64,000 nt of DNA. Origin: an uncultured Anaeroplasmataceae bacterium. GTDB taxonomy: Bacteria; Bacillota_I; Bacilli_A; Acholeplasmatales; Anaeroplasmataceae. The stretch is from positions 28,702-92,701 of the forward strand of contig CAZJSR010000002.1 of assembly GCA_964548855.1 (NCBI GenBank). Direction: 5' to 3'. Positions 1,117 to 56,272 of this stretch are shown here, in pieces; the stretch's first letter is position 1; each line of letters begins with the position of its first letter. A program made the translations under genes and the position numbers. The notes beneath the pieces are model-generated. The model searched no databases, was not told where the DNA came from, and saw only the letters and a program-made list of their open reading frames with translations.

Positions 1117-2798
1117 TGAAACAAAAAATAAGAAGAAGTGGTTTAAAGATCATGTCAAGTCTAATTGTATTGTTAGGTAGTCTCTCATATATTATGATAC
1201 TTGCTGTAATAAATGGTAGTTTGGGATTTATATGTGCAATGGGTGTAACTGTAGTTGGCGCAATAGGTGTTGCGAAAATATTAGGTGAGACTATTTGCCT
1301 ATCTTATACCTTAATTATTATACTCTTGGTTTTGTTTGGAGTACTTAGAGGTATTTTAAGGTATTTTGAGCAATATAGTAATCATTATATAGCGTTTAAA
1401 TTACTTGCAGTATTAAGAGATAAAATATTTGCTAAACTTAGAAAACTTGCACCTCAAGAACTTGATAATGATAAAAAGGGAAGTATTATTGCGTTGATTA
1501 CTAGTGATATAGAAACATTAGAAGTCTTTTATGCACATACTATATCTCCAATATGTATTGCTTGTATAGTTTCTTTATTATCAATGTTATTTGTAGGGCT
1601 TATATCTTCTTGGTATCTCGTAATTATTCAATTTATTTCATATATTGTAATAGGAATTATAGTTCCGATTATTTCATCAAAAAAATTAAAAAGTTCAGGT
1701 GTTATTTATAGAAATGAGTTTTCTAGTTTCAATGCTTATTTTTTAGATAGTATAAAAGGAATTAAAGATATTGTTCTTAATAATAACGCATCTTTAAGAA
1801 ATATGGAAGTTAATAGAAGAAGTGATAAATTATTAACAGAAACTAAAAAAATGAAAAACGATATAACCAAATCATCTTCAATAGTTGAAATGCTTGTATC
1901 AATTTGTATTTTCTTATCGCTTTTATTAGGTATCTTCCTTGTAAAAAAAGAAATTGTATCATTTGGTAGAATGTTAATTGCGATTGTCACTATATTTAGT
2001 TCATTTGGACCAGTAATTGCGATATCTTCATTGCCAGGAAATTTAACACAAACACTCGCAAGTGGAAATAGAGTTCTTGATTTGCTTGCAAAAGAGCCTC
2101 AAGTAAAAGAAATTAAAAGTAAAAATGATATTGTATATCATAATCTAGATGTAAAGAATTTATCATTTTCATATAATAATCAAATAGAAGTTTTAAAAGA
2201 TATAAGTCTAAGAGCTAAAAAGGGCGAAATAATAGGAATAGTAGGAGACAGTGGTTCTGGAAAGTCAACGCTACTTAAACTTTTATTAAGGTTTTGGCAA
2301 AAGTCTAGAGGAAATATAGAATATAATGGAATTGATATTGAGAATATTAATACAAACAGCCTTCTTGAAAATGTAACGATGGTAAGTCAGTCTACATATT
2401 TATTTGATGAAACTATAGAAGATAATATACGTCTTGCATTTTTAGATGCCAAACCAGAAGATATATATAACGCATGTAAGATGGCGTCTATTCATGATTT
2501 TATTATGGGCCTTCCTTTAGGATATAAAACTCCAGTAGGAATGTTGGGTGATAATTTATCAGCAGGTGAGAAACAAAGAATTGGATTAGCCAGGGCTTTC
2601 TTAAGAGGTAGTCAGCTTATTTTGCTTGATGAACCAACAAGTAATGTTGATAGTATTAATGAAGGTATTATTTTAAAATCCTTAAAAGAACAAAAGAGCA
2701 AAAAAAGTATTATTTTAGTATCTCATAGAGAATCCACTATGGCTATTGCAGATAGGGTATATCGTATTGAAAAAGGTATTATTTATGAATACAAGTGA
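1113..2798 (+). CDS. ABC exporter fused permease/ATPase, CydC-like subunit
   Basis: N-terminal 6-TM-type domain, then an NBD with Walker A GDSGSGKST, signature LSAGEKQRI, Walker B LILLDEPTS and H-loop VSHR. Translationally coupled to the upstream paralog. Confidence 0.85.
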   Translation: MMKQKIRRSGLKIMSSLIVLLGSLSYIMILAVINGSLGFICAMGVTVVGAIGVAKILGETICLSYTLIIILLVLFGVLRGILRYFEQYSNHYIAFKLLAVLRDKIFAKLRKLAPQELDNDKKGSIIALITSDIETLEVFYAHTISPICIACIVSLLSMLFVGLISSWYLVIIQFISYIVIGIIVPIISSKKLKSSGVIYRNEFSSFNAYFLDSIKGIKDIVLNNNASLRNMEVNRRSDKLLTETKKMKNDITKSSSIVEMLVSICIFLSLLLGIFLVKKEIVSFGRMLIAIVTIFSSFGPVIAISSLPGNLTQTLASGNRVLDLLAKEPQVKEIKSKNDIVYHNLDVKNLSFSYNNQIEVLKDISLRAKKGEIIGIVGDSGSGKSTLLKLLLRFWQKSRGNIEYNGIDIENINTNSLLENVTMVSQSTYLFDETIEDNIRLAFLDAKPEDIYNACKMASIHDFIMGLPLGYKTPVGMLGDNLSAGEKQRIGLARAFLRGSQLILLDEPTSNVDSINEGIILKSLKEQKSKKSIILVSHRESTMAIADRVYRIEKGIIYEYK

Positions 2799-2810
2799 TG
2801 GAGAAATATA

Positions 2811-3221
2811 ATGAAATTAAAAAAAATATTATGGATTATAGTTGGATTTATAGGTCTTATACTTGGGGCAATTGGGGCATTTTTACCAATTCTTCCATCT
2901 GTCCCATTTTTATTATTGGCACTATTTGGATTTGGAAAAAGTTCAGAAAAGTTGCATAATTGGTTTATTAAAACAAAACTTTATAAGAATAATTTAGAAT
3001 CATTTGTAAAAGGCCAAGGTATGACCTGGAAAACTAAGGTAAAAATTATACTTACAGTAACGCTACTTATGGCCATTGGTTTTTTTATGATGTTTAGAAA
3101 AAGATTATATATACCATGTACTGTACTAGCATTGGTTTGGATTGTTCACTTAATATATTTTATATTTGGTGTGAAAAAATATAAAGGAAATAAAATAAAT
3201 GACGAAATAAGTACCGAGTAA
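2811..3221 (+). CDS. YbaN/DUF454 family small inner-membrane protein
   Basis: The N-terminus GFIGLILGAIGAFLPILPSVPFLLLALFGF is the typical YbaN-family signature. Size is 136 aa with predicted TM helices. Starts 12 nt after the upstream stop. Confidence 0.65.
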   Translation: MKLKKILWIIVGFIGLILGAIGAFLPILPSVPFLLLALFGFGKSSEKLHNWFIKTKLYKNNLESFVKGQGMTWKTKVKIILTVTLLMAIGFFMMFRKRLYIPCTVLALVWIVHLIYFIFGVKKYKGNKINDEISTE

Positions 3222-3245
3222 AATCGGTAAAAAAATAAGAGAGGA

Positions 3246-3261
3246 GTTAGCGTATGCTAAC
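3246..3261. other. Perfect 6-bp-stem hairpin/palindrome GTTAGC-GTAT-GCTAAC between ybaN-like gene and first MacB-like gene
   Basis: Read directly from the sequence. No T-run follows, so it is not a convincing terminator. It could be an operator or an RNA processing element. Confidence 0.3.
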
Positions 3262-3275
3262 TATAGGAATAGTAT

Positions 3276-5348
3276 ATGTCATTACTAAGATTAAATAATA
3301 TAGGTAAAATATATGATTCAAATAATATTTTAACTATTGGATTAAGAAATATTAATCTTGAATTTGATTTTAACGAATTTGTTACTATAGAAGGAGAAAG
3401 CGGTTCAGGTAAATCGACCCTTCTTAATGTTATTGGCGCAAACGATACTTATGAAGAAGGTGAAATGTATTTAAATGGTTGTGAAACATCTCATTTTACA
3501 AAGGCAGAATGGGAAAGTTATAGGCAAAAATATATTGCGACTATTTTTCAAGATTTTAATATTATTGAAAATCTAACGGTAGTTGAAAATATTGAACTTG
3601 CGCTCCTTAGAATTGAAGATAAAAAAATAAGAAGAAAGAAAGCTTTAGAGCTTATAAAAAAAGTAGGACTTATTAATCAATATAATCAAAAAGGTAGTAA
3701 ATTATCAGGTGGAGAAAAACAAAGAACAGTTATTGCACGCGCATTAGCTAAGGATGCGCCAATAATACTAGCTGATGAACCAACAGGGGCTTTAGATGTT
3801 AAATCATCACGAGAAATTGCAAAGTTACTTAAGGATGTATCGCAAGATAAACTTATAATAGTTGTAACTCATAATCCAGAGTTTTTTTCAGATTATGCAA
3901 CTCGTAGAGTAACTATATTTGACGGAAATGTTAAAGAAGATAATGTTATTGAAAAGAAAAACAGTGAAGTTAAAAAAGAAATATTTGATAGTATTAACAG
4001 TAGAAAAAAAGTATTAAGAGATACTATAAATATAGGAACTCTTAATTACAAAAGTAGACCTAAGTTTACAACTATGATGAGTTTTGCATTACTTGTTTGT
4101 GCCATAACTTTGTTTATTATTTTATCACTTGTAAAAAGTACGCTTATAAAACCCATTACTACTTTTATAGATGATGTTCCTATAAGTGGTAAAGTAATAG
4201 TTTTAAACGATAAAGGACTATTCACAGAAGAAGAACTTGATGAGACTTCTAATATTACAAATGCTGGGTTTTATTTACTAGATAATACGTATTCAGAATT
4301 TAAGGTGAATATTTCTAAAAAAAGTGGTATGATTTCATCTTATCAAGTTAATTGTGTTTATTCGCCATATCAATATAATTTAAAAAAAGGGAACGCTGTT
4401 TTAGAGATTCCGAGGTCGTATTTAAAAGACAAAGATAAGATTATTAATGTTTTTAAAAACGCTAATGTTGGAATTGATAATATCTCTGTTAAAACAACAC
4501 TTACAAATAATGATGTAATGCTTTATTTATCACATTATGATGTTACTAATAACGGAGTAAAAATAAAATCGATAAATACGACTATGAAGTTAGGAGAATT
4601 AGAGGTAAATGTATATGCATTTGAATCGTCTGATCTTTTAAATCAAGGTGAAATAATGCTTATTAATTCAAATACTTATCAAGCTACAAAATATAAAGCT
4701 ATATTTTCTTTAGATTCAACCAGGTTATATGATATTATCGATGATTCATTAATTGATGAGACAAAAAGTGGACTTATAGTTAAACTTAGTGAAGAAGATT
4801 ATAAAAAAGTATTTGAAACACCAATAACTACTTCAAATCAGTCAGCATTATATTTTGAAAACGATAAGTTAGCTATGAAATATTTGGATAATCTTCCGAC
4901 AGGTGTTATGGGAATGTTATCTAATAGTAAAGTATATGTAAATAATGCAGGAGAGATATATGAAATGAATATTATTTATTATATATCTCTAATTATGATT
5001 TGTATTCTTTTAGCCGCATTAATTAGTGTTATATTTAGCAGAAGTGTTAAGGTATTTCAAACTGATTATGCTGTTTATAGAACACTTGGAATATCAAATA
5101 AAATATCTTCACTATCACTTCATGTTCAAATGACGTTAATTTTTTTACCAACTATTATATTATTGCCTTTAATAAGTTTGATTACTGTTTTAATTCCAAA
5201 TCTTAATATTGGATTTATAACAATTGGTGATTATTTATTTATAGAAATAATGCTTTTATTAATTGTTCAATTTGTGGCATTCACTTTTAATAAATCCATA
5301 AATAGTCAATCAATAAGAAAAACACTTAGAAGGGGGATAAAAGGTTAA
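3276..5348 (+). CDS. MacB-architecture ABC protein: N-terminal ATPase fused to 4-TM FtsX-type permease with a ~280-aa extracytoplasmic domain
   Basis: ATPase motifs are intact: Walker A GESGSGKST, signature LSGGEKQRT, Walker B IILADEPTGALD, H-loop VTHN. TM1 is FTTMMSFALLVCAITLFIILSLV, followed by a long hydrophilic domain and three C-terminal TMs with an FtsX-like YRTLGIS motif. Confidence 0.85.
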   Translation: MSLLRLNNIGKIYDSNNILTIGLRNINLEFDFNEFVTIEGESGSGKSTLLNVIGANDTYEEGEMYLNGCETSHFTKAEWESYRQKYIATIFQDFNIIENLTVVENIELALLRIEDKKIRRKKALELIKKVGLINQYNQKGSKLSGGEKQRTVIARALAKDAPIILADEPTGALDVKSSREIAKLLKDVSQDKLIIVVTHNPEFFSDYATRRVTIFDGNVKEDNVIEKKNSEVKKEIFDSINSRKKVLRDTINIGTLNYKSRPKFTTMMSFALLVCAITLFIILSLVKSTLIKPITTFIDDVPISGKVIVLNDKGLFTEEELDETSNITNAGFYLLDNTYSEFKVNISKKSGMISSYQVNCVYSPYQYNLKKGNAVLEIPRSYLKDKDKIINVFKNANVGIDNISVKTTLTNNDVMLYLSHYDVTNNGVKIKSINTTMKLGELEVNVYAFESSDLLNQGEIMLINSNTYQATKYKAIFSLDSTRLYDIIDDSLIDETKSGLIVKLSEEDYKKVFETPITTSNQSALYFENDKLAMKYLDNLPTGVMGMLSNSKVYVNNAGEIYEMNIIYYISLIMICILLAALISVIFSRSVKVFQTDYAVYRTLGISNKISSLSLHVQMTLIFLPTIILLPLISLITVLIPNLNIGFITIGDYLFIEIMLLLIVQFVAFTFNKSINSQSIRKTLRRGIKG

Positions 5349-45561: not shown

Positions 45562-45590
45562 TTGACATTCATTTTGATAAAGCGTATTAT
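45562..45590 (+). promoter_or_regulatory. Sigma-A-type promoter (-35 TTGACA, 17-nt spacer, -10 TATTAT) driving the T-box leader
   Basis: Hexamers and spacing were counted directly. It begins immediately after the MBL gene stop. Confidence 0.65.
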
Positions 45591-45599
45591 ATAGTTAAT

Positions 45600-45875
45600 T
45601 TAATATAGAAACCGATGATGCGGAGATAAAGGCAAATATGACTTTAAAGAGAATTTGTGATGGTGGAATACAAATATGATACAGTTTGTCAAATGGACCG
45701 CTGAGGGCGTAGTCAAATGAGAAATCAGAGTATTCTACGACGTTATAGACAAACGTAAAAAGTCTAGGATATGTTAGTATCCTTATAAGAGCACAATTTA
45801 ATTGTGAAGCAAGGTGGCACCGCGGATAATATTAATGATTCGTCCTTGACAGAAATTCTGTCGAGGATTTTTTTG
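45600..45875 (+). promoter_or_regulatory. T-box riboswitch leader, tryptophan specifier (UGG)
   Basis: Stem I AGAGA-type element with a GGUGGAA distal loop. Candidate specifier AAA-UGG-A at 45694..45696. Conserved T-box AAGGUGGCACCGCGG at 45811..45825, where UGGC can pair with a GCCA acceptor end. A 10-bp terminator stem (45843..45867) is followed by an 8-nt U-run. Confidence 0.85.
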
Positions 45876-45897
45876 TATATAACAAAAGGGTGATAAT

Positions 45898-45945
45898 ATG
45901 AAAAAGAAATGGTGGCGCAGTGCGCCGAATATGAAAAACAAGTAA
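45898..45945 (+). CDS. Candidate 15-codon leader/mini-ORF MKKKWWRSAPNMKNK with tandem Trp codons
   Basis: ATG is preceded by AAAGGGTGATAAT, and the same 16-nt RBS-to-ATG context occurs at the mgsA start (55894..55909). Tandem TGG TGG lies at 45910..45915 and overlaps a GC-rich hairpin GGCGC-AGT-GCGCC (45914..45926). Too short to prove coding from sequence alone. Confidence 0.35.
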   Translation: MKKKWWRSAPNMKNK

Positions 45946-45994
45946 ATAAGTAAATAAGATAATTAATATTAAATAAAAGATAGGAGAATATAAA

Positions 45995-47245
45995 ATGAAA
46001 ATTAATGATGTAGATTTTGAAATATATTTAAAAAATTATCCAACAGAGGATGGATATTTCGGACCTTATGGAGGTACATACACAGCACAAGAGTTAAAGC
46101 CAGCGCTTGATGAGATTAAGAATGCATATCAAACAATATGTCATTCAAGTCAATTTATAAATGAACTTAGAAGAATTAGAAAAGAATTTCAAGGAAGACC
46201 TACTCCAATATACCATTGTGAAAAATTATCAAAGTATTGTGGTGGTGCTCAAATATATTTAAAAAGAGAAGATTTAAACCACACAGGAGCTCATAAATTA
46301 AACCACTGTATGGGTGAAGGATTATTAGCTAAATTTATGGGTAAAAAGAAAATTATAGCAGAAACAGGTGCTGGACAACATGGGGTTGCGCTTGCGACTG
46401 CGGCTGCATATTTTGGACTTGAATGTGATATTTATATGGGGGCAGTTGATATAAAGAAACAAGCGCCAAATGTATCAAGAATGAAATTACTAGGTGCTAA
46501 TGTAATAGAGGTTACAGCTGGTCAACAAACTTTAAAAGAAGCAGTAGATGCGGCTTTTGATGCATATTTAAAAGAGTATAAAGACTGTATATATTGTATT
46601 GGTACAGTATGTGGTCCTCATCCATTTCCATTAATGGTACGTGACTTTCAATCTGTTGTAGGTATTGAAGCACGTGAACAATTCAAGGAAATGACAGGAC
46701 TTCTTCCTGATGTTGTTACAGCATGTGTAGGTGGAGGAAGTAATTCAGCAGGAATGTTTATACCATTTTTAAATGATCCAGTGAAAATAGTAGGTGTAGA
46801 ACCTCTTGGAAAAGGTCCAGAAAGAGGACAACATGCGGCATCTATTACTTATGGTACTGAAGGTGTAATGCATGGATTTAACTCAATCATGTTAAAAGAC
46901 GAAAATGGAGAACCAGATAAAGTATATTCAGTCGCATCAGGTCTTGATTATCCTGGTGTAGGTCCTGAACATGCATTTTTAAAGAGTGTTGGTCGTGTTG
47001 AATATGATACAATTTCAGATGATGAAGCCATAGAAGCATTCTTTACATTATCAAGATTAGAAGGAATAATCCCAGCTATTGAATCAAGTCATGCAGTAGC
47101 TTATGCAATGCGTCTTGCTCGAACTACTAAAAAGACAGGTACTATATTAGTATGCCTTTCTGGTAGAGGTGATAAGGATATGGATTATATTATAGAAAAC
47201 TATGGAATTGATTATTTAGAAAAGAAAGGAATCAATCTTAAGTAA
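45995..47245 (+). CDS. trpB: Tryptophan synthase beta chain (stand-alone in this window)
   Basis: Motifs GYFGPYGG, the PLP-lysine region [24 protein letters not shown] and GGGSN. TAGGAGA Shine-Dalgarno. Length is 416 aa. Confidence 0.9.
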
Positions 47246-55792: not shown

Positions 55793-55906
55793 TTTAAATG
55801 AGTTTATAATAATCTTGTAAAAAAATATGTATAAAATACATATTTAAATGTGATATACTAATAAATGAAGATGATAATTATTTTCGCTTTAAGAAAGGGT
55901 GATAAT

Positions 55907-56272
55907 ATGAGAATTGCGTTAATTGCTCATGATAAAAAGAAATCAGAAATTATTAAACTAGCAATAAAGTATAAGGACTTTTTTGAGAAACATGAATTAT
56001 ATGCGACAGGCACAACAGGTACGCTTATAATGGGAGAAACAGGATTAAATATTATTAGAATGAAGTCAGGACCACTTGGTGGCGATCAACAAATTGGAGC
56101 GATGGTTGCGGAGGGGAAAATTGATTTAATATTATTTTTAAGAGATCCTCTAACGGCTCAACCTCATGAACCTGATGTATCAGCACTTTTAAGATTATGT
56201 GATGTACAAAATATACCTCTTGCGACAAATTATAATAGTGCTGAAGCTATGATTAAAGCTTTTAATATGTAG
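55907..56272 (+). CDS. mgsA: Methylglyoxal synthase
   Basis: Motifs [31 protein letters not shown] and [19 protein letters not shown] Shine-Dalgarno before ATG 55907, so the 55865 extension is rejected. Confidence 0.9.

Follow-up and report, generated by a model that had tools for sequence, protein, structure and literature searches.

The tryptophan synthase beta-subunit gene, trpB, in a 64-kb stretch of DNA from an uncultured Anaeroplasmataceae bacterium (contig CAZJSR010000002.1; GC content 26.9%; referred to throughout as the window) lies behind a tryptophan (Trp)-specific T-box leader and, in the 119 nucleotides (nt) that separate the T-box terminator from trpB, a 15-codon open reading frame (ORF) with tandem Trp codons. 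Comparative sequence evidence indicates that this mini-ORF is a genuine translated leader peptide, belonging to the two-Trp (WW) subtype of a [K/R]-R-W-(W)-R family of trpB leaders, and that tryptophan supply is most likely checked a second time through the ribosome translating this leader. The more specific reading, in which the leader senses charged Trp transfer RNA (tRNA-Trp) and a stalled ribosome protects the messenger RNA (mRNA), we consider about evenly poised between right and wrong when taken as a whole. A two-layer sensor had been proposed in the initial annotation of the window; its outline is borne out by the pairing of a T-box with a conserved Trp-codon leader, which, TrpB being free of Trp, supplies every Trp codon of the transcript, but two of the downstream actions offered there, translational coupling and unmasking of the trpB ribosome-binding site (RBS), appear unlikely in the window.

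The evidence for a functional leader comes from a survey of 160 trpB loci (L001–L160), taken in two sets of 80 from species-representative genomes and from metagenomes, with human, ruminant and other gut metagenomes as sources. The T-box core motif was found upstream of trpB in about 100 of the fetched loci, and its distance to trpB is bimodal, either about 60–100 nt or about 130–250 nt; the long class holds a Shine–Dalgarno (SD) sequence, a start codon and a short ORF. A mini-ORF with SD and start that encodes [R/K]-W(W)-R occurs in 53 of 98 non-identical T-box loci, whereas dinucleotide-shuffled sequences gave 0.2, and 1 at most, and the arrangement of T-box plus mini-ORF was counted in 53–62 T-box loci. 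When the gap of the window itself was dinucleotide-shuffled 3000 times, an ORF with SD and start that contains WW appeared once. The comparison of trpB upstream regions that the initial annotation had proposed found the start, frame and Trp codon kept in many species, and for this reason chance, which that annotation had left in play for so short an ORF, is rejected; the brevity of the ORF and the lack of a leader in the closest TrpB relatives could be cited for an ORF without function, but we regard this explanation as effectively refuted by the shuffling results and by the recurrence of the window's WWRSAP in another locus, described below.

The family set comprises 60 non-identical leaders, the window's included, with the consensus M-x-L-L-T-K-R-W-R and MLLTKRWRS as a typical peptide. 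Counted from the Trp, Leu stands at positions −5 and −4 in 33/60 and 39/60 leaders (five codons in use), Thr at −3 in 36/60 (four codons), Lys at −2 in 49/60 (AAA 38, AAG 11), Arg at −1 in 58/60 (CGA 55) and Arg again at +1 in 56/60 (CGU 24, CGC 15, CGA 14 and CGG 3, never AGA or AGG). The synonymous variation of the Leu, Thr and Lys codons, with the residues themselves kept, indicates selection on the peptide and hence translation, while the constancy of CGA and the restriction to CGN point to an extra constraint at the level of the codon or the tRNA. The organisms in which this codon constraint is seen are low in GC. Trp is codon 7 or 8 in 48/60 leaders and the only Trp of the peptide in 53/60. 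The tail that follows W-R extends for 0 to 33 codons before the stop, and this variable distance implies that the critical event takes place at or before the W-R codons. The leader stop lies between −14 and 108 nt from the trpB ATG across the family with no favored value, and the spacers between them are not conserved in sequence, very AT-rich (G 7%, C 10%) and free of terminators.

TrpB is devoid of Trp in 58 of 59 leader loci, the window included, which fits a sensor role for the leader, and a UGG specifier pattern marks the T-boxes of 58 of 59 leader loci; of 20 loci compared with the Rfam model, 11 reached the gathering score for the T-box. In leader loci trpB stands alone, followed by genes that vary by locus and none of which is trpA-like, and within about 0.93 Mb of fetched loci the leader element was seen only beside Trp-regulated trpB. 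These observations bear on an explanation without Trp sensing, in which a short, strongly initiated ORF beside the terminator hairpin serves as a constitutive 5′ element, either by stabilizing the mRNA or by shielding the trpB RBS from the folded T-box, and in which the conserved peptide or RNA motif happens to include a Trp codon. Many loci do place a strong SD directly past the terminator, with 9–23 nt from the T-run to the leader ATG, and SD-dependent 5′ stabilizers are known in Bacillus subtilis (PMC3997798); even so, we consider this explanation quite unlikely, given that Trp and its flanking Arg are the best conserved residues, that in the fetched loci the element keeps to Trp-regulated trpB and that TrpB is otherwise free of Trp.

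Some loci depart from the common arrangement. About 100 nt upstream of trpB, L095 and L096 have a Trp T-box, an SD and a 4-codon ORF (ATG ATA TTT ACT TGA AGG) in which UGA stands at the family's UGG position with Arg next, and the leaders of L018 and L042 end in KRW-UGA. A reading of UGA in leaders by genetic code 4 was rejected for L095, L096 and L135, whose long ORFs are the same under both codes, but may apply to L018 and L042, where code 4 lengthens some ORFs. Two further features were noted among L102, L141/L145, L029, L126, L059, L063 and L017: a second strong hairpin with a U-run, placed 3′ of the T-box terminator and 5′ of the leader (ahead of the leader SD in the first five), and, in some loci, an upstream anti-SD sequence that could base-pair with the SD of the leader.

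In the window, the T-box aligned to the full RF00230 model (positions 1–219) with 94.5 bits (gathering score 93; E = 2e-19). Its specifier UGG (45694–45696) is followed by the conserved purine (AAA-UGG-A-CC, 45691–45699), and its T-box sequence GGUGGCACCGCG (45813–45824) contains the bulge UGGC (45815–45818); the covariance score, the UGG specifier with its purine, the UGGN bulge and the competing terminator are thus those of a Trp-specific T-box. The Rfam match and a terminator scan agree with the complete Trp-specifier T-box ending in a terminator at 45875 that the initial annotation had described, and the covariance search suggested there now sets the leader boundaries (Table 1). The trpB start at 45995 likewise stands, the ORF scoring 536.9 bits against TIGR00263 (cutoff 392); the encoded protein contains 0 Trp residues, and the gene that follows is trans-aconitate-methyltransferase-like, not trpA. 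Between 45860 and 46010 no Rfam family matched, even at E ≤ 10.

Table 1. Features of the trpB upstream region and trpB in the window.
Feature	Position	Strand	Remarks
Promoter-like site TTGACA-17-TATTAT	45562–45590	+	11/12 consensus positions; consensus match only; 5′ of the T-box leader
T-box leader RNA, Trp specifier	45606–45850	+	Rfam RF00230
T-box intrinsic terminator	45842–45875	+	Terminator scan; 12-bp stem-loop 45842–45868 plus T-run (TTTTTTT)
Shine–Dalgarno region of leader ORF, AAAGGGTGAT	45885–45894	+	GGUGAU
Leader ORF, MKKKWWRSAPNMKNK-stop	45898–45945	+	15 codons; ATG 45898, TAA 45943–45945
GC hairpin GGCGC(45914–18)-AGT-GCGCC(45922–26)	45914–45926	+	5′ arm begins in second UGG
C-free AT-rich spacer, leader stop to trpB	45946–45994	+	No predicted structure
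Stand-alone trpB (tryptophan synthase beta)	45995–47245	+	416 aa; TIGR00263

The leader ORF of the window carries its Trp codons UGG UGG at 45910–45915 (codons 5–6), followed by Arg CGC at 45916–45918. The GGUGAU of its SD region is complementary to the 3′ end of 16S ribosomal RNA, and the 16-mer AAAGGGTGATAATATG that includes the leader ATG occurs twice in the window (45885–45900 and 55894–55909), against an expectation of 0.01. The copy at 55894 marks where mgsA begins, and from its ATG the protein aligns to TIGR00160 (methylglyoxal synthase) from profile position 3; the initial annotation had described both a good RBS at 45898 and this shared context, and both copies were located. The second of the tandem Trp codons runs into the 5′ arm of a GC-rich hairpin, as had also been noted, and this is the sole perfect all-GC hairpin of 5 base pairs (bp) with a 3–5 nt loop across the 64-kb window; it is present in both the minimum-free-energy and the centroid predicted structures. 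Among 49 Arg codons in four neighboring genes, AGA was used 36 times and CGC 0 times. No further copies of the leader module were found elsewhere in the window. A tandem 8-mer, TAAATAAG TAAATAAG at 45943–45958, begins at the leader stop and places a second in-frame TAA four codons on.

The window's locus has the features by which the family is recognized: a basic residue, an early W or WW (codon 5–8), an Arg encoded by CGN and a stand-alone, Trp-free trpB. Its position, SD, K-W-W-R(CGC) core and hairpin together make its membership of the family very likely. Two Trp codons are found in 7/60 leaders (the window, L040, L102, L124, L137, L141 and L145), so the tandem Trp pair and hairpin emphasized in the initial annotation hold for the window and for this minority, and not as a general feature, most leaders having one Trp. 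The leader of L040, from a Lachnospiraceae metagenome-assembled genome (MAG), occupies the same position and reads MKKDRRWWRSAPSKEN, sharing WWRSAP with the window while its Ser codon is UCC in place of AGU; one Lachnospiraceae locus encodes MKKDRRWWRSAP. A GC hairpin of 5–6 bp starting from the second UGG is present in 6/7 WW leaders (the window, L040, L124, L137, L141 and L145) and absent from L102, with z-scores of −2.2 to −2.7 in three of the WW-type loci. Its 3′ arm GCGCC falls in different reading frames (SAP, SVRR, MMRQ), which implies that the WW hairpin is kept at the RNA level; two-sided covariation in this hairpin was not found, because the UGG-CGC codons fix its 5′ arm. A general hairpin at the Trp codon was also considered for the family as a whole and rejected as not significant (mean z −0.29, p 0.09), the hairpin being confined to the WW subtype.

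One may postulate on these grounds that the conserved CGAUGGCG / UGGUGGCGC...GCGCC and its hairpin form an RNA-level element, bound by a factor or acting as a structure, to which the ORF is secondary. The invariance of CGA/CGN at the nucleotide level, the retention of the 3′ arm across frames and the uniqueness of the hairpin in the window would all accord with this. However, about 60 loci retain the SD, the start and the frame while their Leu, Thr and Lys codons vary at the third position, most single-Trp members have no hairpin, two-sided covariation is absent and no Rfam family matches the region, and we therefore regard a primarily RNA-level element as quite improbable.

How the leader could act on trpB in the window is constrained by what lies between them. 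The terminator scan detected no second plus-strand terminator-like site between 45876 and 45995, in agreement with the initial annotation; only the small GC hairpin is predicted in this interval, and the spacer is predicted to be unpaired. As there is neither a terminator nor a set of alternative hairpins past the leader, classical attenuation of the Escherichia coli trpL type is disfavored in the window, and Rho control of the tnaC type is disfavored because the 49-nt spacer is without any C, leaving no plausible Rho loading site. Attenuation or Rho-dependent polarity through the leader is accordingly highly improbable, even though the 9-mer of tandem UGG UGG CGC is common to the window and E. 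coli trpL and Christensenella-like relatives place an intrinsic terminator straight after the leader.

We also evaluated the accessibility of the trpB RBS by constrained partition-function folding of the 60 leaders with a ribosome placed at the UGG or at the stop. Mean accessibility was 0.50 in the free RNA, 0.52 with the ribosome stalled and 0.58 with it at the stop, revealing no systematic switch. The trpB RBS of the window is predicted to be unpaired in its unstructured, C-free spacer, with equal predicted accessibility whether or not a ribosome sits at the UGG, and RBS unmasking is disfavored in the window on this basis. The SD of trpB (AGGAG, 45982–45986) begins about 37 nt past the leader stop, and this gap, together with the variable distance across the family, argues against direct occlusion of the SD by a terminating ribosome there; the same distances, 49 nt from stop to ATG in the window, speak against translational coupling. 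In a broader explanation of this type, ribosomes would, on completing the leader, either occupy the trpB SD or start again at it, such that a stall at UGG alters trpB initiation directly. It is exemplified exactly by the at operon of B. subtilis (PMC10327191, PMC4027176), and its geometry exists in a minority of loci, the stop lying 19–30 nt from the trpB ATG in L038, L033, L137, L051, L141 and L145 and the leader overlapping that ATG in the L129–L140 group, L040 and L059. Set against the distances in the window, the lack of a favored distance in the family and an unstructured spacer in which predicted RBS accessibility is independent of ribosome position, it appears improbable. With attenuation, Rho, SD occlusion and RBS unmasking disfavored in the window, the route that remains depends on a ribosome at the W-R codons and not on the geometry downstream.

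The explanation that we favor is the following. The T-box, as its family membership implies, would let transcription pass when uncharged tRNA-Trp builds up; a ribosome would then load at the strong SD just past the terminator and reach the UGG within 5–8 codons, and if charged Trp-tRNA is scarce it would park there. The flanking Arg codons (CGA before the Trp in most leaders, CGN after it in all) and the conserved upstream residues probably slow decoding of the UGG or steady the parked complex, the pause context being one with CGA in the P site and a C after the UGG. As the stall is so near the start, standard footprint sizes suggest that the parked ribosome would cover its own initiation site, so that no queue or collision would arise. 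The parked ribosome would raise trpB output post-transcriptionally, most likely as a 5′ roadblock against decay, as on ermC mRNA; when Trp-tRNA is restored, it would run off and the protection of the message would be lost. The outcome would be a two-stage check of tRNA-Trp charging, made by the T-box at transcription and by the leader afterwards. The weakest step is the last one, protection of the mRNA by the parked ribosome, which we infer; the sensing step is deduced from conservation. In B. subtilis, long stretches of mRNA are stabilized downstream of a stalled ribosome, which serves as a 5′ roadblock, and T-box leaders are processed just upstream of the terminator (PMC3997798).

The distribution of the leader is patchy. 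In the TrpB tree it is scattered within a large Clostridia clade among loci with a T-box only and loci with neither element, the WW forms group together, and the module has been gained or lost repeatedly. The window's locus is the only one with T-box and leader in its own clade of that tree, which consists of Acholeplasmatales-like rumen MAGs with 84–89% TrpB identity; L135, whose TrpB is truncated in its contig, is a second case of T-box plus leader and encodes MKKMNILFRWCI. The window's TrpB is 75–78% identical to the TrpB of many Clostridia, which belong to a different class, and the T-box-leader-trpB cassette may have moved horizontally or been lost frequently. In L053, from an Anaeroplasmataceae MAG, a group II intron (2639–4449; RF02001, RF01998, RF00029) lies directly 3′ of trpB.

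The leader is a module that acts on its own, as it is also found without a T-box. In L139 a promoter, the leader MLLTKRWRSSR, 30 nt and trpB follow one another with no T-box, the leader lying 71–80 nt upstream of trpB. Three Christensenella-like loci without a T-box (L012, L014 and L117) have a promoter, a 5′ hairpin and a leader M-x-I-L-S-K/R-R-W-R/C (MNILSKRWRCHLI and similar) with its stop; this arrangement lies about 100–340 nt upstream of trpB (start 3001 in L012 and L014, 2501 in L117), and an intrinsic terminator, hairpin plus U-run, follows 1–2 bases past the stop, with trpB 100–190 nt later. The 5′ hairpin and terminator segments of these loci are near-duplicates of each other. In constrained folding of the same three loci, a ribosome at the UGG leaves the terminator intact, and one at the stop masks its 5′ arm. 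In L130 and L134, a second Trp T-box lies 3′ of trpB (about 3770–4110), ahead of a trpE-like gene, and is without a KRWR leader.

Several observations weigh against a sensor of charged tRNA-Trp that acts through mRNA protection, and this interpretation must be made cautiously. The direction of regulation is drawn from trpB biology alone, and the protection step has no sequence signature to go by. The geometry of the Christensenella-like loci does not suit a leader in which a stall means expression, unless an antiterminator has been missed. The nearest TrpB relatives of the window (84–89% identity) mostly lack both the T-box and the leader, which implies that the module is dispensable. The window's leader has K-K-K in place of L-L-T and AAA (Lys) ahead of its UGG, and without L-L-T and CGA it is a divergent member of the family; CGA is also missing from the WW relatives L040 (CGU), L141 and L145 (CGC) and L124 (AUA), being kept in L102 and L137, and L-L-T from L040, L124, L141 and L145. 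Finally, in most members a single Trp within a strongly conserved peptide looks more like nascent-peptide arrest, as in TnaC and the Erm leaders, than like a classical hungry-codon leader, and the conservation of the peptide together with its CGA/CGN codons suggests something beyond a plain hungry-codon sensor.

The main rival is accordingly a TnaC-like arrest peptide, in which the nascent M-x-L-L-T-K-R-W-R would stall the ribosome in response to a small molecule in the exit tunnel, for example free L-Trp or indole, with Trp forming part of the sensing peptide and not a hungry codon. Were the ligand free Trp, the stall would switch trpB off, and the T-box would sense uncharged tRNA and the peptide free Trp. 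R-W-R conforms to the +X+ motif at which macrolide leaders stall, a likeness that would support arrest. The conserved residues with synonymous codon variation, the single Trp in most leaders and the nascent chain that places Trp at a fixed codon 7–8 ahead of a variable C-terminal tail would be expected of such a peptide, and the geometry of the Christensenella-like loci makes sense as feedback only when the stall is brought on by excess Trp. The one Trp T-box found ahead of trpE lacks a leader, so the leader may be tied to the indole-using stand-alone trpB, and TnaC provides an example of free Trp being sensed by a short leader (PMC8429421). On the other side, the second Trp of the WW variants suits a codon sensor but is hard to reconcile with a precise binding pocket, the window peptide does not contain L-L-T, the choice of CGA and CGN is a feature at the nucleotide or tRNA level that a peptide pocket does not predict, the W-x3-D-x7-P pattern of TnaC is absent and the window has no rut-like C-rich spacer. 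An arrest peptide of this kind thus accounts better for the single Trp, for peptide conservation and for the Christensenella-like geometry, and less well for the WW variants and codon constraints; on balance we consider it unlikely. Somewhat less doubtful, and advanced only tentatively, is a broader proposition, that M-x-L-L-T-K-R-W-R with CGA-UGG-CGN represents a new sequence-specific arrest peptide family of gut Firmicutes, which would read a signal of the Trp pathway (free Trp or indole, or Trp-tRNA to which it is made hypersensitive by I:A wobble in the P site) and would be portable, standing behind T-boxes, before intrinsic terminators or alone.

Whichever signal is read, T-boxes are usually treated as self-sufficient switches, and the tandem of T-box and leader is seen in about 60% of the T-box-bearing trpB loci of our sample. 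Conservation of the leader peptide far exceeds that of classical hungry-codon leaders, and the family provides a defined candidate stalling sequence of 7–9 residues in an unusual, fixed codon context. The arrangement also bears on the salvage of indole through stand-alone TrpB in gut Trp auxotrophs. A search of the full-text literature for a published description of a trpB or T-box leader peptide returned only the rtpLP precedent discussed below, and the family, which is widespread in gut Firmicutes, is apparently undescribed. To our knowledge, a second ribosome-based sensor on a T-box leader is essentially unknown outside the B. subtilis at operon.

That operon is the closest known system. 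Chen and Yanofsky (2003, 2004) reportedly found in the at operon (rtpA-ycbK) a Trp T-box followed by a leader coding region, rtpLP. According to PMC10327191 and PMC4027176, expression of anti-TRAP is governed by the T-box together with tRNA-dependent ribosome stalling in the leader peptide, a direct precedent that the initial annotation, right about two layers in outline, had missed. Both systems have a Trp T-box, a very short ORF with Trp codons on the same transcript and then the regulated gene, and in outline both would sense uncharged tRNA-Trp at transcription and at translation, a likeness of arrangement. They differ in that the regulated gene is trpB here and anti-TRAP (rtpA) there, in that rtpLP contains three Trp codons and ends in a stop that overlaps the SD of rtpA, where a terminating ribosome blocks initiation, in that the leader stop of the window neither overlaps nor abuts the trpB SD and varies in distance across the family, and in that the trpB leaders have a conserved peptide with fixed Arg codons.

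The remaining comparisons are with leaders that act without a T-box. E. coli trpL is likewise a short W-W-R leader through which a translating ribosome senses charged tRNA-Trp, and its 9-mer UGGUGGCGC is identical to that of the window; its terminator and antiterminator hairpins overlap the ORF, however, while the window has no such hairpins past the leader, which is an add-on behind a T-box, and most members of the family have one Trp codon. TnaC resembles the trpB leaders in being short, in having one essential Trp flanked by conserved residues and in serving as a nascent-chain-dependent sensor of the Trp pathway, as may the trpB leaders. It is a peptide of 24 residues with W12, D16 and P24 that stalls at its stop codon and acts via Rho (PMC8429421, PMC8450073); the trpB leaders are without this spacing of W, D and P and have a variable stop position, and the spacer of the window is C-free. 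In ermC-type leaders (ErmCL), a ribosome also parks within the first 10 or so codons upstream of the regulated gene, and the stalled ribosome is a 5′ roadblock that stabilizes the mRNA (PMC3997798, PMC9178857), which is the part that we propose for the ribosome on the trpB leader. The macrolide-caused stall additionally opens a hairpin that sequesters the RBS, whereas none is predicted here, and the presumed signal of the trpB leader is the charging of tRNA-Trp.

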